The notes under the pieces: model-generated
What the model was told of the DNA's origin: nothing
The model's input: the letters and a program-made list of their open reading frames with translations, nothing else
Database searches by the model: none
Part shown: piece by piece, positions 4,130 to 63,424 of the stretch
How the letters are laid out: each line of letters opens with the position of its first letter
How positions within the stretch are numbered: position 1 is the stretch's first letter
IMG/VR virus record: IMGVR_UViG_3300027898_000001
Strand: one strand, 5' to 3'
DNA length: 64,000 nt
Source of the DNA: a virus
Taxonomy: Duplodnaviria > Caudoviricetes
Position numbers and translations under genes: made by a program

Positions 4130-4130
4130 C

Positions 4131-4138
4131 TGTAAATA
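4131..4138 (+). promoter_or_regulatory. candidate phage promoter motif TGTAAATA
   Basis: Intergenic, 40 nt before ATG 4171; same motif at 18646, 25674 and (minus) 50558-50565. Confidence 0.4.
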
Positions 4139-4170
4139 GTGTAATACATGTAATCAAATGGAGTTTTATT

Positions 4171-4389
4171 ATGTACAGCAAGGTAGTATTAGGAAATAAA
4201 TCAAGTTTACCTCACCAATCTGCAATAGAATTTACTGTGTCTAGTTTTAGAGAACTGTTACTAACATTACATAGTATCTATTACGTGGCACCCGTTACTA
4301 TTGTGCGAGAATGTAACAGAAATGTTGTTTTACTGTCTGGACAACCCGTCGGACACATTGACACATTTCCAGCTGACTATAAAGGTTAG
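4171..4389 (+). CDS. small hypothetical protein
   Basis: GGAG SD then ATG 4171 (MYSKVV). Confidence 0.55.
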   Translation: MYSKVVLGNKSSLPHQSAIEFTVSSFRELLLTLHSIYYVAPVTIVRECNRNVVLLSGQPVGHIDTFPADYKG

Positions 4390-10540: not shown

Positions 10541-11713
10541 ATGTCACAACACTCCCTATATAATACTATTCGTAAGTTGGGTGATGATGTTGAATTGCTT
10601 TCTATAGCAGAAGCTATTTTACTCCATGTTGTAGGTGTTGATGATGCCTATACATGCCAACGTAAGTTTAAAGATCTGATTGAAAGAAAGAACTTTGAGT
10701 ATAGTGCGCAAAAGTTTAGACTTGTTATCGCCTCTACGGCTTACATAAACATAAATTTAAAATTCTTCGTGTTGAATGTAATGCAGCGCCGACCCACTGT
10801 ACAACGTATTCAAAAGTATTTGGATATATTTGATATTTCTAGGAATGATGCCGTAATACTAAGGTCATTATTACAGAAAAGTGAATTCAAGCGAGCAATG
10901 TCTCAGGCAGCGGCTAAAGTACCTGAGAACCTGATTACAGAAGGTGCGTATAAATCTGTATTCAAAACATTCAAAACAATTTATCCTGATCTGATGAAGC
11001 ACATACGTAGTAAAACATTTACCAAGTTAAGGTTCTTAACTGTATCATCTAATACTGAGTTCTATGACTTGCACATGGAATTGATGTGCAAAGCATTGCA
11101 AACTTATATCAAAATGGTACCTATTCAGAAAAGTGAATTGCATGTGGCTAATATCATACGCACCTCGCTTAATAATCACACCATTAATATGATTAAATCT
11201 TACACCACACAAAAACGTGCGCGTATAATTAATTCAGGTGTAAAGGATGGTTTTGGCCAAACTCGTTTTGATCTAGTTACTGTTTCTGAAAATCAATTGT
11301 TGAAAGCCTTTGGTGTTGCAGAAGGTGAAGAAATTGGATTAGATGACTTGCGTGATGCTGGTGCATGTTTTGATGATGAACGTGCTCGTGATAGTGAACT
11401 TAACTTCCAATCAATAATTCGTAGATATGGTGTAACCGCAAAGCGTAAGACGTTGTTAGAATTGTTAGCGTGCCAAGAGCATAAACGCTTTTCACGTTTC
11501 CTTCGCCGTCGTGCGAAAATAGATGCGTCAAAAGACAATGTTGATTTCTATGATACAGCAGGACAAGAAGCCTACTTTGATAACGTGTGCAGATTCTTAC
11601 ATTTATGTGAAGACAAAGCCCGCAAGTTTGTAAAAGAAGTAGGATATTCCGCGTATCCAGAAATCGCAAAACAATTGGAGACAAGTGATGCAGCAGCAGC
11701 CATCGCAGAATAA
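10541..11713 (+). CDS. putative RNA polymerase sigma-factor-like protein
   Basis: LMKHIRSK...EFYDLHMELMCKALQTY...HVANIIRTSLNNHTINMIKSY has the spacing of sigma70 regions 2.1-2.4; ORF is solid, function is inferred. Confidence 0.5.
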   Translation: MSQHSLYNTIRKLGDDVELLSIAEAILLHVVGVDDAYTCQRKFKDLIERKNFEYSAQKFRLVIASTAYININLKFFVLNVMQRRPTVQRIQKYLDIFDISRNDAVILRSLLQKSEFKRAMSQAAAKVPENLITEGAYKSVFKTFKTIYPDLMKHIRSKTFTKLRFLTVSSNTEFYDLHMELMCKALQTYIKMVPIQKSELHVANIIRTSLNNHTINMIKSYTTQKRARIINSGVKDGFGQTRFDLVTVSENQLLKAFGVAEGEEIGLDDLRDAGACFDDERARDSELNFQSIIRRYGVTAKRKTLLELLACQEHKRFSRFLRRRAKIDASKDNVDFYDTAGQEAYFDNVCRFLHLCEDKARKFVKEVGYSAYPEIAKQLETSDAAAAIAE

Positions 11714-13571: not shown

Positions 13572-14426
13572 ATGAAAACAAACCCTATAATGGGGGTGTA
13601 CGATAAAACAGACGATGTTAGCCCAACTATAAATCCTAGAAGGGCATCATCTGCTAAATCTTTTTCTAAATTGCTTAGAAATCGCGCTAGAAAAATACGC
13701 GATTATCACATACGTGTTCATTTGGAGTCACAACCTAATATTACTTTAGGTAGAGCAGTCCCTGTTAATACGTATGTTGCTGAGCAGCTACGAGAAGAAA
13801 CGTACACAACCATACCCGATGTTGATAAACAAATACATCCAGTGTTCGGTGTTAATCAAGAATTAGTTGAATCTAATATACCTGAGCGGCAAGCCTCTGA
13901 AAGTATTGATGTTTTAAACGAGTTTGAAATTGATGTGGATGAAGTAAATGCTTTTAAAGATTTACTGAACGACCTTACAGAATCTACACAATCCATTATA
14001 CTGCGAGATTGTGTAGCAAACTTTATTGCTTTCGATAATGCTTCTTCTACCACTCAGGCTATTATGCGTGATGGTTTAAACATTAATATGGAGGTTTCAG
14101 CGGAAGTCGTACCTGCATTAGAAAACATTGCGCGTCTATCTGTGACAAGCCATTTCCTTTCTAGGTCGAATTCAATACCTGATAACATTAAAAACGTGTA
14201 TTTGCGCGAGGTAGCGAAACTACTTGCTACTGAAACTGTTACAGATATGCGTAAGAAAGAAGTCGGAGGTAAGTATAGTTCGTTATTGCAAAACTTGGTT
14301 GCTAGATTTAGAAGTGCCGAAGGTAAAGTAAACAACGTATCTGACATGGGTAATAACCCTGTTGGTGCTATGCGAAACCGTGAAGGTCATTTCCGAGCCC
14401 AAAAAGATCAAGAAATAAATCAGTAA
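13572..14426 (+). CDS. hypothetical protein upstream of terminase
   Basis: 284-aa ORF, GAGGT SD. Confidence 0.75.
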   Translation: MKTNPIMGVYDKTDDVSPTINPRRASSAKSFSKLLRNRARKIRDYHIRVHLESQPNITLGRAVPVNTYVAEQLREETYTTIPDVDKQIHPVFGVNQELVESNIPERQASESIDVLNEFEIDVDEVNAFKDLLNDLTESTQSIILRDCVANFIAFDNASSTTQAIMRDGLNINMEVSAEVVPALENIARLSVTSHFLSRSNSIPDNIKNVYLREVAKLLATETVTDMRKKEVGGKYSSLLQNLVARFRSAEGKVNNVSDMGNNPVGAMRNREGHFRAQKDQEINQ

Positions 14427-14430
14427 TTTA
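14424..14430 (+). promoter_or_regulatory. candidate phage promoter motif TAATTTA upstream of terminase
   Basis: Overlaps the previous stop and abuts the terminator stem; motif recurs at 16690, 23510, 26521, 50590, 59558 and (minus) 48445-48451. Confidence 0.4.
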
Positions 14431-14464
14431 AAAGGCACTGGGATTCGTTCTCCGTGCCTTTTTT
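14431..14464 (+). terminator. Rho-independent terminator
   Basis: AAAGGCAC...GTGCCTTT stem with inner GGA-TTCG-TTC and a T run. Confidence 0.8.
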
Positions 14465-14476
14465 ATTGTCTGCGGA

Positions 14477-16684: not shown

Positions 16685-16689
16685 TGAAG

Positions 16690-16698
16690 TAATTTAGA
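16690..16698 (+). promoter_or_regulatory. candidate phage promoter motif TAATTTAGA
   Basis: Intergenic, 33 nt before ATG 16723. Confidence 0.5.
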
Positions 16699-16722: not shown

Positions 16723-17490
16723 ATGGAAATTGAAGTATTAACTAGCGATGCTCTACTATCCGCAGAAGCTGCAGGTGTGCAAGACCAGCATAAATTGCAA
16801 GGACTATATCGTCCAGGTGGTGTTCTACCAAGAACTGAGAAACATGTTCCTGTTGGTAACTCACGTCGCCATGAAAAGGCTGTGTTTAAACATAATCTTG
16901 TAGAACATGGTGTTGAGTACCTTTACAATCCACCTCGTGCTGCTGTACCTATTCCAGACTCCGCGTTAAAACCTTTAGTTATTGACATTGCTAAGCGTTT
17001 AGGTTTGGATCGTAGCATTCAACATTCCTGTTATTTGTACTCTCGATCAGAAGGTACAATAGGTTTTGCATTCGTAGCATTTAACTTATCTGAAGAACTG
17101 TTATTGAAGTTTATTCCGATGTTTGATAAAACTATGATGGCACATGGTTGGACAAAACTTACTGTAGGTGTAGCAAAACTGGATGGTAGTGTGACTCGTG
17201 TGAATTTTATAATGCGCATGGCACAAAAGAAAGATGAACATCCGACCTTGCCAGAAGATACTCATGTCGGTGGTACTTCTATGGATGGTAGATTACCACA
17301 TGGTGCAAAGTCTATTAAGAAGCCTGACAATTCTGAACATACGGAAAAACTTAAAGGTCCTCACGATATTCATACTATGCGTCGAAAAGAACCTGCATCA
17401 CATGCTGGTGACGAAGACGAACCTATTGATCTTAAAACTGCGGGTATTGTAGATTCTGATTTATCTGACATACTTGGATGGGATAACTAA
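16723..17490 (+). CDS. hypothetical protein (head-gene neighbourhood)
   Basis: GAGG SD; 255 aa. Confidence 0.75.
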   Translation: MEIEVLTSDALLSAEAAGVQDQHKLQGLYRPGGVLPRTEKHVPVGNSRRHEKAVFKHNLVEHGVEYLYNPPRAAVPIPDSALKPLVIDIAKRLGLDRSIQHSCYLYSRSEGTIGFAFVAFNLSEELLLKFIPMFDKTMMAHGWTKLTVGVAKLDGSVTRVNFIMRMAQKKDEHPTLPEDTHVGGTSMDGRLPHGAKSIKKPDNSEHTEKLKGPHDIHTMRRKEPASHAGDEDEPIDLKTAGIVDSDLSDILGWDN

Positions 17491-18626
17491 TGGCTACTAA
17501 GCGCGATCCTAGAGTATACAAATGGTTTACGTATAACGGACGTAACCTGAAGTTGGAAACGGACGAACACGAATTATCTTTAACTAAGGGTGAAGTGTTT
17601 GGACTAAAGAAAGCAGGATCGCGCTATCATTTCGTAGATATGGATCGCGATGTTCAGATGCCTGTAGAAACTTTCGATGCAGAGCGTATGATTAAGAACT
17701 CTTCAGGTTATGCTGGACGTATAGGTAACTACAAAGTTGTTCCTGGCGTAGGTGGTTCGGATGTACCTAGACAAGAGAACGAAGTTCATATTGATAGTAC
17801 TATGTTCAAGCAGGGTTATTACGATAAAGTTAAAAAGACTCTAACATTAGAGTTTCGCAGTGGTGCTGTCTGGCAATATGAGAATGTATCTCCTAAAGAA
17901 GCCTTGTTGTTTGAAACCAGTAAATCTCAAGGCAGATACTACAACGACAAGATTAAGGATGTTAAGACGGGCCAACGCTTGCAAAGTCTTTCATCTAATG
18001 CTCCAATAGTTTATCGTGAGTATGAGTTACCGTCTCTGAATGAGCAACCTATGTTGCAATCCGCATTCTCTATAGGTGAGTCGGTTATGGTAGCATTTGG
18101 ATTGAGCGGCTTTTTAGCATTCTCTGATAATGTTGCTCGTGGTTGTGTCATTGCTGGTATACACTTTTACGAAGGTAAAGTAGCGTATGATGTTTATGTG
18201 CCTGTTGAGAAAACTGTTGACGGTGTTTTATACACATTGTTAACCAACATTGACAGCGTTGCTATTAATCCACCAATAGATAGTATGTCATCAAACTATA
18301 CGCTGCAGGCAGTTGTACAAAATATTAGTAAAAAGTTTGAAGCTAGTGTTGTGGATCGTACGGACGTTGGTGAAATGATTGAAGTAACTATACATACCAC
18401 ACCTGAAACTCATGCTAGTGTTCGTGCAACTATTTTACGTACAATGTTTACTGCACACTTCAAGCTAGATCATCAACCTGGTTATGAAGGTGTTAAATAT
18501 GCTTGGTTTATTTTCAATGATAACCGTGCAGTGTTGACTGACCATATAGATAAATTTGTTTTACTGCTATATAATGGTGATGAAACAGATGAAATCCCAG
18601 AAGCTATAAAGAAGCTGGCGCTTTAA
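17490..18626 (+). CDS. multidomain protein containing a KTSC domain
   Basis: STMFKQGYYDKVKKTLTLEFRSGAVWQYENV...SKSQGRYYNDKIK; N-terminal domain shared with the SprT protein at 26559. Confidence 0.8.
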   Translation: MATKRDPRVYKWFTYNGRNLKLETDEHELSLTKGEVFGLKKAGSRYHFVDMDRDVQMPVETFDAERMIKNSSGYAGRIGNYKVVPGVGGSDVPRQENEVHIDSTMFKQGYYDKVKKTLTLEFRSGAVWQYENVSPKEALLFETSKSQGRYYNDKIKDVKTGQRLQSLSSNAPIVYREYELPSLNEQPMLQSAFSIGESVMVAFGLSGFLAFSDNVARGCVIAGIHFYEGKVAYDVYVPVEKTVDGVLYTLLTNIDSVAINPPIDSMSSNYTLQAVVQNISKKFEASVVDRTDVGEMIEVTIHTTPETHASVRATILRTMFTAHFKLDHQPGYEGVKYAWFIFNDNRAVLTDHIDKFVLLLYNGDETDEIPEAIKKLAL

Positions 18627-18632
18627 CCAAAC

Positions 18633-18675
18633 AAACTCCTAATAATGTAAATACATAACACATTATTAGGAGTTT
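18633..18675 (+). promoter_or_regulatory. perfect 16-bp hairpin sequestering the RBS of the next gene, with TGTAAATA inside
   Basis: AAACTCCTAATAATGT (18633-18648) / ACATTATTAGGAGTTT (18660-18675); AGGAG at 18668-18672. Confidence 0.8.
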
Positions 18676-18679
18676 TTCT

Positions 18680-19198
18680 ATGGGCATTGTTTTAGCTGTT
18701 ATTGGTAGTCGTGGTATTGGGGAACCTGTTAGGTATACTAATGAAATTTACCCTACTGCTACTTTCTATCCTACGTATAAGAACATGGGTCAACTAAACC
18801 TAGTTTTCAAAGAATTAAATTCAACTATTAAACGAATCGTAGAAATAGAGTCTGCAAAGAATCCCGATTTTAATCCTCGAATTGATATATCTTTATCAAT
18901 AGGTGATGCGGATGGTGCAGATGAATTAGCTAGGATATGGGCAGTAAAGAATCAATTGAATTATACAGTGCATGTTGCTAAGTGGAAAGTATTTGGTAAA
19001 TCTGCAGGACACAGACGTAATCCTGATATTATTGCACCTGCTGATTATGTAGTTGCATTCTATGATGGTGAAAGTTCAGGTACTGCTGGTGGTATTGAGT
19101 ACGCAAAGAAACGTGAAAAGAAATTGAAAGTCATTAGGTATCTTAAACACGTACCTTATTTAGGATCGCGCACGAAAAAGAGAAAGGTAACAACATGA
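18680..19198 (+). CDS. SLOG-superfamily protein (YspA/DUF2493-like)
   Basis: LAVIGSR, GDADGADELA, GKSAGHRRNPDII..ADYVVAFYDGESSGT. Confidence 0.88.
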   Translation: MGIVLAVIGSRGIGEPVRYTNEIYPTATFYPTYKNMGQLNLVFKELNSTIKRIVEIESAKNPDFNPRIDISLSIGDADGADELARIWAVKNQLNYTVHVAKWKVFGKSAGHRRNPDIIAPADYVVAFYDGESSGTAGGIEYAKKREKKLKVIRYLKHVPYLGSRTKKRKVTT

Positions 19199-21081
19199 TA
19201 AAGTTTCCTAAACCGTCATTTCAACATTTAGGTGCATCTACAACTGTCGCCCCTTCGAGTGAAGGTTCACGACTTGGTTATGACAGTCGGGGTACTGTTA
19301 CTAAGAAGGTCCAGGCTATTACAAATAACTTTGTGTCAGAATCTAATAGCGGTATGCGAAACACACAGATAAGCCAAATGCCTATCGAAGTGGATATTGA
19401 CCCACTATTGAAAGACATTGTGTTTTCGGAAGATCTTGAACAGAAAAAGTTAGTTACCAGACTGTATCGCGATATTTATTATAACGATGCTGTTGGCGGT
19501 AGTGCAGTTGACTTGGTATCCACATTAGCATTTTCTGATTTAACATTGGGTGGTATTACTGATCCTATTGCAGAACGGCATTTCATGGAGACTATTGAGC
19601 GTCTTAATTGTCGCACATTGTTTCCATCCGCATCAGTTGACCACCTAGTAGATGGTGAGTTTATTGGTAGTATGCTTTACAATAAGACTTCAAAGAAACT
19701 ATTCGATCTTATGCCACACAGAAGCGACAACTGTAAGATAGATGCGTTACCTTTCTTTGAGCAGGACCCTATAATTACAGCCACGTTAGATCAAAGCGTT
19801 GCTGCACTGTTTTCAGGTGATAGTAAGCGTATAGCTAGTTTGAAAGCGCGCCTCGGTCCTGAGATAATAGACTTGCTATCGAAAGAAGCCATTGAACTCG
19901 ATCCAATGAGTACGATTCATGTACCAAGAAAAACATTCACAACTGGTGGGGGTGTTTCTTGGTTCAGACGTATATTGCCATTGTACTTAATTGAAAAGAA
20001 TTTGTTTCGAGGTACATTGGTTGAGTCCGCACGTAGACAGCGTGGTATATTACATATAACTCTCGGTGACGGTGATGCTTGGGAACCTACTCGCAGTGAT
20101 ATGGAATTCATAACTGAATTGTTTATGAACGCTGACTCGGATCCACTTGGTGCTATCATTGCAACTCGTTTAGGTGTTAGTACAGAAGAAATACGCCAAG
20201 GTGGTGACTTCTGGAAAGTAACTGATATATGGGATTCTACTGCAACATTTAAAATGCGATCACTAGGTCTATCTGAATCCCTTCTGTCGGGTGAGGCGAA
20301 CCTAGCAACTGCCGATGCTAACATGACAGTGTTCATTGATTGGCTCCGCACTTACCGTGATATGTGGACTCAGAAATTCTTCTACAACAAAGTATTTCCA
20401 CTTGTGTCGTTGTCACATGGCTATACGATCAACACTCGCGGTAAATTGATTCGTAAAGATGGTTTGATGACTGGGGATGTTCAGGCCAACTTAGATAGAA
20501 TGAATGACGGTAGTAGATTGCTTATTCCTACAGTACATTGGGCTAAACAATTGAAACCAGAAGGTGATAGTGCGTATATGGATATGTTGAACACACTTAC
20601 AGATAAAGGTGTTCCAGTACCGCTACGTGCGTTAGCTGCCGCAGGTGGATTTAACTTAGATAGCCTATTAGCAGATTCCAAAGACAACATTAATCTTATG
20701 GAACGTGTTATGACGTATGCAAAAGAAATTGCGGATGTTAAGAAGAAATACGGACCACAAGAGGCGGCAGATGATGGTTCTGCTCTAGCATCTACAGCAC
20801 AAGATACCGAGTTTGCTGCGCGTCAATTGTACAACATGCTTAATGGCGGTCGTTCCGCAGTATTGAATCAAGGTATGGGTAAACACGTAGGTTTAGCGTC
20901 ACGCGATTTTGGTGAAAGTAGTGAAATAACCACGCAGACTCGTACAGGTAAAAAGAAAATGGTGCACAACCAACGTGCTGCTAATAATCGTGCAAATGAT
21001 TCTATTAGACGTGCGGTTTCTAATATCACAGCTAACAAGAAGACACCATTAACACATTCAACTTATACACCACACAAGTAA
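19195..21081 (+). CDS. probable portal protein
   Basis: 628 aa downstream of terL; helical segments typical of large-phage portals (RDIYYNDAVGGSAVDL, KMRSLGLSESLLSGEANLATA); largely positional inference. Confidence 0.65.
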   Translation: MIKFPKPSFQHLGASTTVAPSSEGSRLGYDSRGTVTKKVQAITNNFVSESNSGMRNTQISQMPIEVDIDPLLKDIVFSEDLEQKKLVTRLYRDIYYNDAVGGSAVDLVSTLAFSDLTLGGITDPIAERHFMETIERLNCRTLFPSASVDHLVDGEFIGSMLYNKTSKKLFDLMPHRSDNCKIDALPFFEQDPIITATLDQSVAALFSGDSKRIASLKARLGPEIIDLLSKEAIELDPMSTIHVPRKTFTTGGGVSWFRRILPLYLIEKNLFRGTLVESARRQRGILHITLGDGDAWEPTRSDMEFITELFMNADSDPLGAIIATRLGVSTEEIRQGGDFWKVTDIWDSTATFKMRSLGLSESLLSGEANLATADANMTVFIDWLRTYRDMWTQKFFYNKVFPLVSLSHGYTINTRGKLIRKDGLMTGDVQANLDRMNDGSRLLIPTVHWAKQLKPEGDSAYMDMLNTLTDKGVPVPLRALAAAGGFNLDSLLADSKDNINLMERVMTYAKEIADVKKKYGPQEAADDGSALASTAQDTEFAARQLYNMLNGGRSAVLNQGMGKHVGLASRDFGESSEITTQTRTGKKKMVHNQRAANNRANDSIRRAVSNITANKKTPLTHSTYTPHK

Positions 21082-23491: not shown

Positions 23492-23561
23492 ACCACTCTT
23501 TTTACTCGATAATTTAAACGTGCATTAATGCAAGTTCATCTTTCAACCTTTAAAGAGTGGT
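23492..23561 (+). promoter_or_regulatory. 10-bp inverted repeat covering the RBS, with TAATTTA between the arms
   Basis: ACCACTCTTT (23492-23501) / AAAGAGTGGT (23552-23561); TAATTTA at 23510-23516; GGTGA SD at 23559-23563. Confidence 0.65.
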
Positions 23562-23569
23562 GACAAAAC

Positions 23570-25213
23570 GTGGATATTCATAACGGTAAGGCCGTAGGGT
23601 CTTTGACGTTGGCGTACACACCCACACTCCCAAATCATGCAGCTCGTCTGCAAGACATACAGAGTGCGAGTGCAGCGGCAGCGGCACCAATATTTATCAC
23701 AGGTGTTACTCCAACTTCTTCTGGTAACGTGGGCAGCGAACAGTACGTAGCTAATACTGTTCCTGCTAATATCGTTGTTACCGATTGTGTGAGTGACACC
23801 GCCAATGTGCGTGTGGCTTTCTTAGCGGAAAGTGGTGCTTCCTTCTACAGTATCGGTGTTACTTATAATAGTTCACCTGTTACTTCAATCTCTGAACATC
23901 CTACAGACAAACGTACCTTCGTTGGTTATGTTGACGTAGTTATGTCAGCTTCTGGCACTATCACACTTGTATCATCTACCGGCGCTACGGCGTCTGTTAA
24001 TGTTGTATTGAGTGTTGGTGGCCCAGCAGTTCAATCTCTGAACTTAGGTGCTAACCCAGGTGCTCAGACTGAATTGAAATCGGGTGATACTATCACTATC
24101 TCCGGTGTAATTGATAATACTGCTGTATCTGCTCAAGTGGTTAATTCTGGTGTAGCCGCTAGTGGTTCAATTGCATTAGGCGCTACAGATAGCGGTGGTG
24201 CTGGTTTTAAAACTTTCACAGGTACTGTGACCGTTGCTAACCGCACTGGTACGTTCGGTGTAACTATTACAGGTACTAACTCAATTGGTACTGTTGGTAA
24301 TCAGTTCACATCTTCAGCTACTAAAGTTCTTAATCAGACTTTCCCAACTGTTCCTGCTCCTACTTTCACCTATCCAGGTGGACAAGAAGCTGTCAAGTCT
24401 GGTCAAACAGTTACAGCAACTTCTAGCATTACAAATGCCGACTCTGTTAGCTATGCCTTTACACAAGGTACTGTTGCAGGTCCAGCTGTACTTGCTACGA
24501 ACAAAACTTTAACTTGCACTAACAACGTGTACCAAATAGGCACGAACAACTATACTATCACGGCTACCAAGTCATCTAACGGTGCTGTAACTGTTGTTAA
24601 TAGTTCAGTTGCGTGTGCTGGCGTTGCAGAACAAATCAGCATCAACATTACTGGTTCGCCTGTACGCTTACGCTCTGACGTTGCCGGTGCCGATTATGTT
24701 GTAAACTTAACAAGTAACCAAACTGTTCACAGTACACAAGTTCCTACTTTGGTAGCTCCTGTGGGCACATGGCAAGGTAGTTGGGTACTAGCTGGTAATA
24801 CGTGGTCTCGTACATTACGTATCATCGACGGTGCTACAGCAGGCACAACTGCGTTCACTAGCCTTAGCTTGTTCAACAAAGCATTGGTAGAAACAACTGT
24901 TATTACTGCAGGTGCTTCTTACACAGTTGGTGGTTTCGTATTGCGTACCATTACTTTCAATGCCTTCGCGCAACATATGCCAATTGGTGCTACTGTTGTT
25001 ACTAACAGTAAGGTACATGCGCAATATGCGGGTACAGGTAGTGATTTGACGTATCGTGCAGACACTGGCAATGCGCAAACTAGCTTCACATTGACAAACA
25101 GTGCTGGTGTATTCCAATCAACCGGAGCTACTGACCTGTTCATTAGTGATGCTGCGTTTGCCGGCTCTAACACATCTGGTACCCTCCAGTTGACAATAGA
25201 GGAGCTTGCATAA
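23570..25213 (+). CDS. putative virion structural protein (T/S/G/A-rich, beta-sandwich-like)
   Basis: 547 aa, very T/G/S/A/V/N-rich, Ig-like strand pattern. Confidence 0.65.
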   Translation: MDIHNGKAVGSLTLAYTPTLPNHAARLQDIQSASAAAAAPIFITGVTPTSSGNVGSEQYVANTVPANIVVTDCVSDTANVRVAFLAESGASFYSIGVTYNSSPVTSISEHPTDKRTFVGYVDVVMSASGTITLVSSTGATASVNVVLSVGGPAVQSLNLGANPGAQTELKSGDTITISGVIDNTAVSAQVVNSGVAASGSIALGATDSGGAGFKTFTGTVTVANRTGTFGVTITGTNSIGTVGNQFTSSATKVLNQTFPTVPAPTFTYPGGQEAVKSGQTVTATSSITNADSVSYAFTQGTVAGPAVLATNKTLTCTNNVYQIGTNNYTITATKSSNGAVTVVNSSVACAGVAEQISINITGSPVRLRSDVAGADYVVNLTSNQTVHSTQVPTLVAPVGTWQGSWVLAGNTWSRTLRIIDGATAGTTAFTSLSLFNKALVETTVITAGASYTVGGFVLRTITFNAFAQHMPIGATVVTNSKVHAQYAGTGSDLTYRADTGNAQTSFTLTNSAGVFQSTGATDLFISDAAFAGSNTSGTLQLTIEELA

Positions 25214-25622: not shown

Positions 25623-25660
25623 AAAAGGCACTCTGGAGCAATCCTCAGTGCCTTTTCTTT
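25623..25660 (+). terminator. Rho-independent terminator
   Basis: AAAAGGCACT/AGTGCCTTTT 10-bp stem, inner GGA-GCAA-TCC, T-rich tail. Confidence 0.85.
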
Positions 25661-25673
25661 TGTCTATAATAAG

Positions 25674-25681
25674 TGTAAATA
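25674..25681 (+). promoter_or_regulatory. candidate promoter motif TGTAAATA upstream of the structured RNA
   Basis: Between the terminator and the RNA stem; TATAAT also at 25665-25670. Confidence 0.45.
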
Positions 25682-26558: not shown

Positions 26559-27974
26559 ATGTTAATATCCATTTCATCTTCTGCATACACTTGGTATAAG
26601 TATACGGGTGATAAACGTGTTAAATATAACGATCATCACCCAGAATTTGAACTCACACTAAAGCGCAATGAAATATTTGGTGTGGCTAAGAATTTTACAG
26701 TAGTACATGAAGATGAACTGGATATACCTTTCAAACTATCAAAATCCGAATTAAAGCATTTACTTACAAATAGTGTTTTGTTGAAGTATGACCACGATAT
26801 GTATCCTAGACTCTCCTTGCCTTGTAAGGAAGCGGATATTCGCCGCGTGTACAATTTTTACAACGCTAAACTATTTAACAACGAATTACCTACTGACATT
26901 AAGTTCCGTCGTATTACACGCGAAGGTGTTGAAGGTATGGCTGGAGGTAGGACCAATCTAAAGACAGGCAAATTTAACCACGTTATGTGGTATCATCCTT
27001 CTTCAATGACTGATGTACCATTCTTTTGTCACGTTGTTATACATGAAATGATCCATGTACTAAACAATGTTCGATACTTGGCTGGCGATGACTCTTATCG
27101 TAACGCTGGACATGGGCCAATGTTCGTAAAAGAAATGCACCGTATTAATGCTCTTGGTTATAAGATATTGCTAACGGTTAAACAGGAAGATTATCATATT
27201 GTTGAATCACAAGAAACTATTTATCTTGCCACGTATCAATTAAGTAGAGGTAAGTTGGGTTTCTGGAGCTATACACCGTTTGATCCTATCAATATCTTGG
27301 AATCATTGAATCTTGCAGGGTACATGCCAAGTGCTTATGAATATGGCACTACGCAGAACTCTCTCGCTATTAAGGCAGATCCAATTGTTCGAGGTAGACC
27401 TGCAGACAAGTTAATGCCTAAAGTTGCACACGCTGATTCCGTACATATCAAAACAAAGTTGAACTTCATCACAGATAAAATGCTTAGTGGATTTAAACCT
27501 ACAGTGTATAAGCGTATTGAACGTGATGCGCCTGTAGATGTTAAACCAAGTGTGGAGAATATGACTAAAGCATGTGCCAAGTATTTATATTTAGGTAAGG
27601 CTGCGTATGTTTCAAATATCTTTATGAATCTTGGTGTTAAAGAAACTAATACCTATGATATGGAATTTGCACGTAGCGCAATTAAATCAAAAGGTTTCAA
27701 TGACAGTGATTTCGACTATGTGTTGAAAAGCTGGTATGATATTCCAGATAAAGCTATATTGGCAGGTGGTGATTGGCTTGACGCTACACGATCTATCTTG
27801 AAAAACAAAATGAGTAATGATAGCGCTATAAATAAAATCGCACGTATCTATAACAGTGATTTCGCAGGACGCGTTGAACCCGAACGATATGCACGATTAG
27901 CTGCACAGTATTTCGATATTATCACATTATCTCAAACAACTTTAATGGCTGAGATTCTAAAACGGATTCGATAA
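26559..27974 (+). CDS. SprT-like zinc metalloprotease domain protein
   Basis: YNFYNAKLFNNELP, HVVIHEMIHV (HExxH), GHGPMFVKEMHRIN. Confidence 0.88.
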   Translation: MLISISSSAYTWYKYTGDKRVKYNDHHPEFELTLKRNEIFGVAKNFTVVHEDELDIPFKLSKSELKHLLTNSVLLKYDHDMYPRLSLPCKEADIRRVYNFYNAKLFNNELPTDIKFRRITREGVEGMAGGRTNLKTGKFNHVMWYHPSSMTDVPFFCHVVIHEMIHVLNNVRYLAGDDSYRNAGHGPMFVKEMHRINALGYKILLTVKQEDYHIVESQETIYLATYQLSRGKLGFWSYTPFDPINILESLNLAGYMPSAYEYGTTQNSLAIKADPIVRGRPADKLMPKVAHADSVHIKTKLNFITDKMLSGFKPTVYKRIERDAPVDVKPSVENMTKACAKYLYLGKAAYVSNIFMNLGVKETNTYDMEFARSAIKSKGFNDSDFDYVLKSWYDIPDKAILAGGDWLDATRSILKNKMSNDSAINKIARIYNSDFAGRVEPERYARLAAQYFDIITLSQTTLMAEILKRIR

Positions 27975-40710: not shown

Positions 40711-40743
40711 ATACAGTGGATATTTGATTATCATCCACTGTAT
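40711..40743. promoter_or_regulatory. intergenic 11-bp perfect hairpin
   Basis: ATACAGTGGAT / ATCCACTGTAT with 11-nt loop; no + strand U-tract. Confidence 0.6.
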
Positions 40744-46792: not shown

Positions 46793-47203
46793 TCCCTCCA
46801 ATTTATTTAGATCCTTGTCATCATACTGCTCATCAATAATACCAGATTTAAGTAACATATTTTTAAATCTGGTATTATCTTTCTGAGCGAATCTCTTTGA
46901 CAATTCAGTTATCGAGTATTCCACATCTGGTACCCAACTTCCTTCAACTACATACCCATTTATATAAATGACTTCTACACGTTTCATTACATCTTTAAAC
47001 TGCTGACACAATGTTATCGTGACAAATAACTCTTTTGCAGATTTTAGAATACGGAATTCATAAAACACTATTTCACAAGTTGCGCTCTTTACAGGTGCGG
47101 ATAATGAAATAAGATTTTCGGTACGTACAGGCTTTAGGTTCAATTCTCGCGCTAATCTCTTTGTAAAATCAATTACTGTTTTGTTGTTCAGTATCTCAGA
47201 CAT
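46775..47203 (-). CDS. hypothetical protein
   Basis: 142 aa; convergent overlap with the chaperone gene. Confidence 0.7.
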   Translation of the reverse strand: MSEILNNKTVIDFTKRLARELNLKPVRTENLISLSAPVKSATCEIVFYEFRILKSAKELFVTITLCQQFKDVMKRVEVIYINGYVVEGSWVPDVEYSITELSKRFAQKDNTRFKNMLLKSGIIDEQYDDKDLNKLEGLIRLS

Positions 47204-48459: not shown

Positions 48460-49707
48460 CTAAATTGCCATAGGTGTAGGGTTTTCTAACTTGCCTTTAT
48501 TCTTGTAACCAACAAACTTATAGTCGTCCGCAGTAGAGTTTTCTAAATCTTCCAATGTTTTGATGATAGGGTTAATTAAGAAACGTCCTCTGTTTTCTTC
48601 ATGAGGACCGCGTTCGATTTGCTCTCTAGCTGCATCCAAGTGTGTAACATAAATATGCGTATCACCAGTAAGATAAAATAAACTGCCAGGTGCAGTGTTC
48701 GTCACACGTGCCATCTTGTTCAACATCATATCGTAGCTTGCGATATTGAATGGACTTCCCAATACAAAATCGGCACTTCTCTGAAACATGATTAAGTCTA
48801 AACGGTGTCTGGGTACGTTCAAACTGTCCAATACTTCGTGTGTGAAAACGTCCCTTGAGAAAGCAGCTTTTGACACATTTGAATATATCCAATCGCCAAA
48901 TACTGTTAATTCTTTCTGTCTTGAAAGTCTTTCATTTCCATACCATTCTACATCATGTGTAACTCTTGCGTGTAATGCTTGTACGCGCTCGTGTAACATC
49001 AATTCAGTACACAAGTATTGCTGCAATACATGACAAGCAGGTAAAGCTATTTGCTCCAACACTGCTGGATTCCAACCTAAAACTAAAACACGGCGGCTGT
49101 TAGGTGATTTAATGATAGTATCTACAGCGTTCTTCAATTGATCTACTTCACGATACAGTACAAACACCGTAACTTTCTTTGTATCCAATTGCTTTGAATA
49201 CGTACCATCTAGTCGGTACCCCAATTTGATGTAATGTCTAAACATCTTATGTTCTTGTTCTTGTTTTAACTGACGTTCAGTTGTTGCTGATATGGGTCCG
49301 CGATTAACATCATCTGCAATTAATTCTTCACACTCAAACAACACGGTATCTTTCCAGCGACGCCACTGAGCACCATAAATAGGACCTAGATCGTCTGTAC
49401 CTTTACGAAATGTATTACTCAACCAAGCATTTGGATTAACACCATGTTCGTTAGCATTCTCGTACCATACGTTACAACCAGCAGCGCCAAAATCGGCAGC
49501 ACTTGTTTTACCTTGAATGAAACAACGTAGTTCACCAAGAACACTTTTAAGTGGTAATGATTTACTAGATACTGCATTTAAAGTAGTGCCGTAGTTAGTG
49601 TTGTATTCTGTTAGATTAACTACTTTACCTAGTGTATCAACACCAGTTCTGTTTTCGCGCACAGGACACGTAAGTAATTCTTCGACTGTTTTTAAATATG
49701 CTTCCAC
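48460..49707 (-). CDS. thyA: thymidylate synthase with two long insertions
   Basis: ENRTGVDT, DLGPIYGAQWRRW, SRRVLVLGWNP, ALPACH, FQRSADFVLGSPFNIASY, GDTHIY. Confidence 0.95.
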   Translation of the reverse strand: MEAYLKTVEELLTCPVRENRTGVDTLGKVVNLTEYNTNYGTTLNAVSSKSLPLKSVLGELRCFIQGKTSAADFGAAGCNVWYENANEHGVNPNAWLSNTFRKGTDDLGPIYGAQWRRWKDTVLFECEELIADDVNRGPISATTERQLKQEQEHKMFRHYIKLGYRLDGTYSKQLDTKKVTVFVLYREVDQLKNAVDTIIKSPNSRRVLVLGWNPAVLEQIALPACHVLQQYLCTELMLHERVQALHARVTHDVEWYGNERLSRQKELTVFGDWIYSNVSKAAFSRDVFTHEVLDSLNVPRHRLDLIMFQRSADFVLGSPFNIASYDMMLNKMARVTNTAPGSLFYLTGDTHIYVTHLDAAREQIERGPHEENRGRFLINPIIKTLEDLENSTADDYKFVGYKNKGKLENPTPMAI

Positions 49708-50557: not shown

Positions 50558-50565
50558 TATTTACA
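50558..50565 (-). promoter_or_regulatory. candidate promoter motif TGTAAATA (minus strand)
   Basis: 30 nt before the minus-strand ATG at 50535. Confidence 0.45.
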
Positions 50566-62151: not shown

Positions 62152-62670
62152 ATGCACTATTTTTTAATAGTAAACAGTACAGGGTTAGTTACTGGACATT
62201 CTGAAAGCACCATAGTAATAGATGGTGCTATTTATGTTCAAAAATGGTTGTATGATAAAGTTTGTTCAGGTATGTCCGAAGGAACCTTATACCGCCATGT
62301 GTCTGGAGATATTATTATTATAGTATCGAAAGATATTGAAGCTGTTAGAAATAAAACTATTGCTAAGATAAAAGATGAATGTACCAAACGCATTTCTACT
62401 TATACATATACGGGACTGGATATTCCTATAGTATTAAGTAGAGCCGACCTTAGTGATATGTCTTTATGTCTGAGTTTAGAAACACATTACATTACTTTTT
62501 CAAATGTTAAATTGTATTTGGACCAAGTACGTGCTATCCTGCAGTATTACATGTATTACAGGAATAAACAGATTCAAGAAATGCACCACGTTCTTGAATC
62601 TGTTTATAATGCGCTTACAGAAGATGAGATAGAAAAACATTTAGTAAACTTCATTCAAATAGGTGATTAA
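62152..62670 (+). CDS. probable tail fibre assembly chaperone
   Basis: Follows a fibre gene; RNKTIAKIKDECTKRI...DEIE pattern. Confidence 0.6.
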   Translation: MHYFLIVNSTGLVTGHSESTIVIDGAIYVQKWLYDKVCSGMSEGTLYRHVSGDIIIIVSKDIEAVRNKTIAKIKDECTKRISTYTYTGLDIPIVLSRADLSDMSLCLSLETHYITFSNVKLYLDQVRAILQYYMYYRNKQIQEMHHVLESVYNALTEDEIEKHLVNFIQIGD

Positions 62671-62671
62671 T

Positions 62672-63424
62672 ATGCTTACTGGTGTAACAAGCAGTCCGCT
62701 ACTTTCTAACTTATTGGAAGGAAAGAAGCAAACTGTTCCTGTAGGTCAAGTACCATTAACTAACACTGTATCTCAAAATGATCCTAATGTTTATCCAACT
62801 ACATTAGGATCACCTCTAACTGATTTAAGATTGTCAGATTTTGAAGCGATTGGTGCTAATATACAGAATACAACACTACAGCGGGATGATACTACTAATA
62901 AAGTTGCGTTTGCTGATACGTCAACCTCATCTGCTACTAATATAGTGCAAGCCGACTTCAACGATAAATCTGGCACACTATCTATCATTAAAGCTGATGG
63001 TAGTGTTATTACAATTCCACATTTTCTCGTGCAAACAGATTTTGGTGTAGGTCCTACTGGACCCAAAGGTGTACCTGGAAATGACGGTATGCCCGGGAAC
63101 GATGGCTTCAACGGTTTTGATGGTGATACTGGTTGTGCTGGTGCTACCGGTGCTACAGGTCCTGCTGGTGTACCGGGCGCTGCTGGTGCTGATGGTGTAC
63201 AGGGCCCTGCCGGTCAAATAGGTCAACCAGGTCTTGCTGGAATGCAAGGTATTCCCGGCGAACAGGGTAGATATGGGGATGACGGTGCTAGAGGTAGAAA
63301 AGGTCAGAGTTGTACTGCTTCGTTAGGTTCTTCTGGACCTGCAGGCGTATCTCCAGTTGCCGCTGTTGTAGTATCTGCTACTGCACCTACAGACGGTTCA
63401 TTATTGTGGGGCAAGCCTGTCTAA
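62672..63424 (+). CDS. collagen-like (Gly-X-Y) fibre protein
   Basis: AGGTGA SD, ATG 62672; continuous G-X-Y run from about 63044 to 63350. Confidence 0.88.
   Translation: MLTGVTSSPLLSNLLEGKKQTVPVGQVPLTNTVSQNDPNVYPTTLGSPLTDLRLSDFEAIGANIQNTTLQRDDTTNKVAFADTSTSSATNIVQADFNDKSGTLSIIKADGSVITIPHFLVQTDFGVGPTGPKGVPGNDGMPGNDGFNGFDGDTGCAGATGATGPAGVPGAAGADGVQGPAGQIGQPGLAGMQGIPGEQGRYGDDGARGRKGQSCTASLGSSGPAGVSPVAAVVVSATAPTDGSLLWGKPV

Follow-up and report, generated by a model that had tools for sequence, protein, structure and literature searches.

The locus lies in a 64,000-nucleotide stretch of DNA, hereafter the window, which is placed within the approximately 260 kb of an uncultured PaBG-like jumbo phage. 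Around the genes for DnaB, terminase and portal the phage is syntenic with PaBG of Pseudomonas, JA11 of Dickeya and Y3 of Erwinia, and its portal protein shares 45-56% identity with its counterparts in these three phages. On the plus strand, ORF255 and a gene for a KTSC/KMPT-N protein (together 16723-18626) fill the space between a putative post-terminase promoter and a hairpin, which is followed by a gene of the SLOG fold (18680-19198, 519 nt, 172 aa, YAcAr/YpsA-like) and by the portal gene (19195-21081), the start of which overlaps the SLOG stop (ATGA, 4 nt before the stop). In PaBG, JA11 and Y3 the slot between terminase and portal contains one small unrelated gene only, and ORF255, KTSC and SLOG are thus lineage-specific occupants. 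PaBG gp107, from the same slot, was considered as a relative of SLOG and rejected as unrelated. The KMPT-N N-terminal domain is common to the product of 17490-18626, where it is combined with KTSC, and to that of 26559-27974, where it is combined with an SprT-like metalloprotease domain.

The protein encoded downstream of the hairpin has the fold of the SLOG superfamily, Rossmannoid with glycine-rich nucleotide-binding motifs. Its start codon was fixed by N-terminal alignment with seven homologues (P0002-P0008, 50-63% identity), and the motifs GDADGAD and DGxSxGT are invariant among the aligned sequences. When the structure was compared with 48,161 chains by VIA-align, YpsA (Z 10.8), ShosA (9.9) and DprA (9.7) came out on top, and the further top matches included a LOG-family protein, the Moco carrier protein and the SLOG domain of ThsA. 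Seven of the eight family members gave weak matches to Pfam YAcAr (E-value 2e-5 at best); the family profile gave no match to PDB sequences, and the Foldseek result was weak. At the nucleotide level the hairpin/SLOG region had no match in 50,697 phage records. Searches of IMG/VR with the SLOG protein, the portal protein and the SLOG alignment returned none or one distant match, and scans of metagenomes and GTDB yielded only partial SLOG homologues, 33-52% identical, that had no portal or terminase neighbours.

A perfect inverted repeat lies in the 53 nt that separate the end of the KTSC/KMPT-N gene (17490-18626) from the SLOG gene (18680-19198). The 5' arm, AAACTCCTAATAATGT (18633-18648, plus strand), pairs in 16 of 16 Watson-Crick positions with the 3' arm, ACATTATTAGGAGTTT (18660-18675), across the 11-nt loop AAATACATAAC (18649-18659). 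The 3' arm contains the Shine-Dalgarno sequence (SD) AGGAG of the SLOG gene (18668-18672), which is located 7 nt upstream of the ATG at 18680 and is paired with an anti-SD, CTCCT, at 18636-18640 in the 5' arm. Directly 3' of the GGAG at the stem base there is a terminator-like tail, TTTTTCT (18673-18679), with a run of five T at 18673-18677. The candidate promoter word TGTAAATA (18646-18653, plus strand) straddles the junction of arm and loop: its first three bases close the 5' arm and its last five open the loop. A first-pass annotation of this DNA had pointed out the perfect 16-bp hairpin, the AGGAG in its 3' arm and the word across arm and loop, and all three were verified at the same positions. 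The hairpin by itself has a dG of -18.0 kcal/mol (core -14.5), and a 91-nt fold across it reached -29.1 kcal/mol (z -4.95), a value equalled by none of 200 shuffles. Perfect repeats of at least 16 bp occur three times in the window and were absent from 40 Markov simulations. A search of Rfam with the hairpin gave only sub-threshold chance matches.

Occlusion of the SLOG ribosome site was pronounced. When the region from -60 to +20 was folded for 75 genes, the SLOG SD was the least accessible of all, with an unpaired probability of 0.023; the gene next in rank stood at 0.159, and the median was 0.49. On RNAs begun upstream, at 18540, 18600 or 18627, the unpaired probability was 0.000 for the SD and 0.36-0.48 for the AUG, while on RNAs begun in the loop, at 18657-18662, the values rose to 0.31-0.38 and 0.71-0.78, respectively, and the structure of the short leader was not significant (z -0.6). 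Two earlier proposals, that the hairpin hides the SLOG ribosome-binding site and that a transcript starting near 18660 escapes because it has no 5' arm, are both borne out by these values. Since the 5' arm ends within TGTAAATA, any RNA starting 3' of the word is without that arm, and the exact start is immaterial. Among the word sites of the relatives, masking on long RNA and a corresponding switch in accessibility of the translation initiation region (TIR) were found at a minority only, and 30-odd distant SLOG homologues had neither comparable SD occlusion nor a preceding hairpin. On the latter count the idea that occlusion is typical of SLOG genes as a family was rejected. The suggestion of the first-pass annotation that the SLOG protein is harmful or useless unless made at one precise stage found no support here; with masking at a minority of the relatives' sites and at none of the distant homologues, the idea of tight timing rests on one locus.

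The hairpin is not the only one of its geometry. Five of the six perfect inverted repeats in the window with arms of at least 11 bp have loops of 10-11 nt, namely 62564-62607, 46836-46878, 62779-62812, 40711-40743 and the SLOG hairpin itself (18633-18675), and three of the five lie in frame inside intact ORFs. As four other such repeats exist, three of them inside genes, the perfection of the stem alone is no evidence of selection for a lock on the SD. The arms of 62564 resemble those of 46836, and the arms of 18633 those of 62779, similarities which are inflated by palindromy and by multiple comparisons. No conserved loop or flanking sequence was found among the repeats of the window, and in Y3 perfect repeats showed no bias toward loops of 10-11 nt. 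The twin repeat at 46836, the host ORF of which is an ORFan, sits in a terminator-like place, 44 nt past a convergent gene end.

There were two sides to the evidence on TGTAAATA, one from the window and one from the relatives. Over the full window the word occurs at chance level (8 copies, 7.9 expected). It is also the top intergenic 8-mer, found in four gaps and in all of them directed toward the next gene, compared with 0.11 expected from intergenic composition (intergenic DNA makes up 2.9% of the window); none of 5000 simulations reached this for the word, and the enrichment is weak family-wise, as some 8-mer attained four gaps in 8.5% of simulations. In the relatives the word was counted against its reversed control, giving 38 versus 5 copies in Y3 and 19 versus 9 in JA11. 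Non-coding DNA, which is 5.9% of the Y3 genome and 5.5% of that of JA11, carries 22 of the 38 and 16 of the 19 copies, co-oriented with the genes and mostly 18-60 nt upstream of their starts. An unbiased ranking of intergenic k-mers placed TGTAAATA, CTGTAAAT and TCTGTAAA first in both phages, with 13-14 gaps against about one expected. Judged by this distribution, TGTAAATA is a genuine conserved regulatory word of the PaBG/Y3/JA11 group, and the decisive support for its reality comes from the distant relatives Y3 and JA11. In the searchable literature nothing relevant was found on the word in phage contexts.

Seventy-five well-placed sites of the relatives gave the consensus A-A-W-C-TGTAAA-T-A, in which position -1 is C in 88% and A in 3% of the sites. 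The SLOG copy has an A at -1 and scores 11.1 bits with the position weight matrix, between the 10th and the 25th percentile of the relatives' sites; we consider it as a candidate single-box pre-late promoter of sub-consensus quality. The shortest distance from word end to ATG in the relatives is 17-18 nt, with an SD beginning about 8 nt after the word, from which we infer that transcription starts no more than about 8 nt downstream. For the SLOG word this predicts a start at approximately 18657-18661. Three sister sites are present in the window. The canonical AAC-TGTAAATA at 4131-4138 (plus strand, 14.5 bits) is placed 32 nt before an ATG; within 4130-4178 the word pairs weakly with the downstream AUG region (CTGTAAATAGT / ATTATGTACAG), with a z of -0.89 that is not significant. 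The site at 25674-25681 (plus strand) follows 17 nt after an intrinsic terminator at 25623-25656, in a serial arrangement of terminator and then promoter, and the canonical site at 50558-50565 (minus strand, 17.9 bits) stands at the head of the thymidylate-synthase operon, divergent from a TAATTTA site in front of the PAAR gene. The thymidylate synthase itself (48460-49707, minus strand) is 415 aa long; its residues 1-410 align to just 273 of the 335 positions in a profile, a sign that the enzyme may carry a sizeable insertion. The usual grammar of the group has a terminator 10-18 nt upstream of TGTAAATA, as at 25623/25674, and the SLOG element may be such a pair of terminator and word in compressed form, with masking of the SD as a side effect. 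Terminators that abut TGTAAATA were found at four sites in JA11 and at none in Y3, and abutment as a general design of the group was rejected on this count.

A second class of intergenic words, after TGTAAATA, was (G)CTAATTT, with 15 occurrences versus 0.6 expected in Y3. In the window, 10 of the 29 copies of TAATTT(A) fall in the 2.9% of intergenic DNA, all co-oriented with genes. The two words precede different kinds of genes. In Y3, TGTAAATA is found in front of NAD-dependent ligase, DNA polymerase (two genes), SbcD, clamp loader, primase, DNA methyltransferase and a sigma-factor gene, and in the window in front of the minus-strand thymidylate-synthase operon, a block of SprT, phosphohydrolase and Nudix genes, small ORFs and SLOG. 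TAATTT precedes tail sheath, endolysin and a unit of small ORF and portal in Y3, and terminase, tail sheath and the PAAR gene in the window. With replication genes after the one and virion and lysis genes after the other, TGTAAATA is assigned to a pre-late, replication-stage class and TAATTT to a late class. The likeness of the SLOG word to a T4 late promoter was misleading: the T4 late word TATAAATA is present at chance level (9 copies, 7.6 expected) and was rejected as an operative signal here, and TGTAAATA heads replication genes in Y3. Two further TAATTTA sites were recorded in the window. At 14424-14467 the word abuts the 5' arm of a strong terminator before the terminase gene, so that a transcript from there would lack most of the arm; the layout is that of the four abutted TGTAAATA sites of JA11. 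The other copy is flanked by the arms of a 10-bp long-range stem at 23492-23572 (CCACTCTTTT / AAAGAGTGG), in which the tail-sheath SD is covered; the significance of this fold is marginal (z -1.72, matched by 11 of 200 shuffles).

The late-class word of importance for the hairpin is AGTAATTTA at 16688-16696 (plus strand), just 3' of the terminase stop, which is the likely source of read-through RNA over the hairpin. Directly after the terminase stop AGTAATTT is invariant in the window phage, JA11 and Y3, and in the two latter it heads the portal unit, while in the window ORF255, KTSC, hairpin and SLOG sit between AGTAATTT and the portal gene. No TAATTT or other late-type element was found in the window between the hairpin and the portal start. 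Given this and the conserved AGTAATTT upstream, late portal RNA most likely crosses the hairpin, which argues against a complete terminator and for an SLOG SD that is locked on late RNA. As to what may read the words, phages of the PaBG type are without an RNA polymerase of their own; sigma factors and an orthologue of gp33 are among their products (PMC7824862, PMC7412058). The gene at 10541-11713 is an orthologue of PaBG gp112 (35% identity, E 6e-74), which is given as a possible sigma factor in the PaBG paper. Neither Pfam nor PHROGs detected a sigma domain in 10541-11713, and it is the orthology to gp112 that is established.

The reading that we prefer, at a probability of about one half, is that of an insulator hairpin which encloses a promoter, so that SLOG is silent on late read-through RNA and translated from a nested pre-late promoter. 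RNA from the late-class promoter AGTAATTTA would hold both arms, and the hairpin would fold; transcription would be terminated in part at the U-tract, and the remainder would continue into the portal gene. On this read-through RNA the SLOG SD would be locked in the 16-bp helix, with no translation of SLOG. RNA begun at TGTAAATA inside the hairpin would lack the 5' arm, leave the SD open and allow SLOG to be made. Host RNA polymerase, equipped with a phage sigma factor, is the probable reader of the word, which belongs to the replication-stage class. SLOG would then be a pre-late gene, kept silent while it is embedded in a late operon, and since SLOG, ORF255 and KTSC stand between the late element and the portal gene, silencing of SLOG on late read-through RNA is the most likely function of the hairpin. 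Several points weigh against this reading. The SLOG word has an A at -1, the enrichment of the word in the window is weak family-wise, TIR occlusion is not general in the promoter class of the relatives, and the 519-nt untranslated stretch of SLOG on late RNA might exert polarity on the portal gene. The four other perfect repeats with loops of 10-11 nt moreover show that this phage forms such repeats where neither an SD nor a promoter is involved.

The main rival, which we regard as possible and on the whole doubtful, is a plain intrinsic terminator or static attenuator that ends or damps the ORF255-KTSC unit, with SLOG constitutively low, TGTAAATA a non-functional near-match and no switch. 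The anatomy supports such a role about as well. The G/C-rich stem base CUCC...GGAG is followed at once by U5, an A-tract comes before and a T-tract after as in the terminators at 14431 and 25623, and the dG of the hairpin and of its core are comparable to those of the clear terminators of this phage (-11.6 to -17.5). Gene starts of this kind are as a rule preceded by a terminator in the PaBG/Y3/JA11 group, the SLOG copy of the word is without the conserved C at -1, and the position of the twin at 46836 is also what a terminator would take. Against a terminator speak the 11-nt loop and the long A/U-rich upper stem, which are atypical for efficient ones, and the absence of the hairpin from the list of the terminator scan. 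Full termination would moreover separate the portal gene from its sole late-type promoter upstream, and an exact TGTAAATA in the 53-nt gap is expected by chance only about 0.004 times.

It would be improbable, in our judgement, that the hairpin represents a phage-specific class of perfect DNA palindromes with 10-11-bp spacers, either sites for a phage protein or products of templated (quasipalindrome) mutation, and that the overlap with the SD is incidental. The common spacer length of the window repeats, the absence of such a bias from Y3, the location of three of the repeats in frame in ORFs and the likeness of the arms in the pairs 62564/46836 and 18633/62779 are in agreement with it, though the arm similarities are subject to the inflation mentioned above. 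The content of SD and anti-SD and the exact placement from stop to start suit a role in RNA, arms of 16 bp are longer than half-sites of a protein require, and the effect of the RNA on the SD follows whatever the origin. At a similarly low level we place the proposal that the SLOG hairpin is one of a phage-specific class (perfect hairpins of 12-17 bp with loops of 10-11 nt, five in 64 kb) for which phage or host would supply a dedicated factor that recognises or cleaves them; such a post-transcriptional layer, together with the nested replication-stage promoter, would turn off late a SLOG enzyme of nucleotide signals, possibly anti-defence. Slightly less probable still is an element of RNA processing or stability, that is, a stem that protects a 3' or 5' end or a target of a nuclease specific for double strands (host RNase III, for instance). 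Cleavage would divide the upstream from the downstream message and could by itself expose the SLOG SD or abolish it. In favour are the length of the helix, its perfect pairing and its freedom from bulges, and repeats of similar geometry are found inside transcribed ORFs; on the other hand, 16 bp is a short substrate for RNase III, the internal loop that is the signature of T7 sites is absent, the repeats of the window share no loop or flank sequence, and Rfam held nothing.

If the preferred reading of a promoter enclosed in an insulator hairpin is true, the logic of a promoter within a hairpin extends to unrelated jumbo phages, and a late operon is kept from expressing an embedded pre-late accessory gene. 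It would be a known design of phage T4, new in the lineage that employs it, in a timing that is probably reversed and in the promoter grammar of two words. Probably more useful is a by-product, the two conserved single-box intergenic words AAWC-TGTAAATA (replication) and (G)CTAATTT / AGTAATTT (virion, lysis). No description of this two-word grammar of the PaBG/Y3/JA11 group was found in the searchable literature. The words provide promoter predictions for the cultured phages Y3, which grows on Erwinia amylovora, and JA11, which grows on Dickeya solani, and temporal classes for many genes of unknown function, SLOG among them. Specifically, the grammar predicts transcription starts about 6-8 nt after CTGTAAATA, and these should be used earlier in infection than those after TAATTT.

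Hairpins that sequester a TIR and are bypassed by an internal promoter are known from T4 e, soc, 49 and I-TevI, as well as from I-TevII/III, segB and Aeh1 mobE (PMC3014915). The first-pass annotation had described the SLOG element as a T4-style translational switch, and this stands as far as the geometry of e, soc, 49 and I-TevI is concerned (PMC3014915), while the timing appears reversed, with TGTAAATA pre-late and the upstream promoter late-type. As in the T4 hairpins, the SLOG SD is buried in a helix on RNA initiated upstream, and a candidate single-box promoter word in the DNA for the 5' strand and loop would lead to a transcript without the inhibitory arm. The hairpin is also attached to an accessory or inserted gene, as is often so in T4. 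Unlike T4, the lineage is that of PaBG/Y3/JA11-like jumbo phages and not Tevenvirinae, the word (C)TGTAAATA is tied to replication genes and is not the late TATAAATA read by gp55, and the hairpin carries a terminator-like U-tract. Silencing would affect late RNA and translation proceed from pre-late RNA, opposite to the order in T4, and the switch at SLOG is a prediction from sequence.

The promoter-early stem-loop (PeSL) cassettes of the T4-type phages RB49 and phi1 make a second comparison, with a non-late promoter overlapped by a stem-loop, and the stem-loops were shown to terminate (PMC2839356). Like PeSL, the SLOG element is a short intergenic cassette ending in SD and ATG, in which a stem-loop with terminator-like energy and U5 tail overlaps the candidate promoter; it flanks non-core genes and would insulate them from neighbouring transcription units. 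PeSL have two-box sigma70 promoters and G/C-rich stems, and recombination between them is mediated by some 100 bp of shared homology (PMC2839356), whereas at the SLOG site the word is single-box and phage-specific and the 16-bp stem is A/T-rich. The SLOG gap holds the single-box word only, with no two-box sigma70-like promoter, and the window contains no repeated homologous cassette of PeSL type and no evidence of mobility, only the short arm similarity to 62779. As promoter, lineage and cassette all differ, the SLOG element is not a strict member of either the T4 or the PeSL family. The serial terminator-then-promoter junctions of its own group, at 25623-25681 and at sites in Y3 and JA11, have the same word and the same insulating logic; in these a distance of 10-18 nt separates the upstream terminator from the word and the SD is untouched, whereas the SLOG hairpin encloses the word and its 3' arm constitutes the SD.
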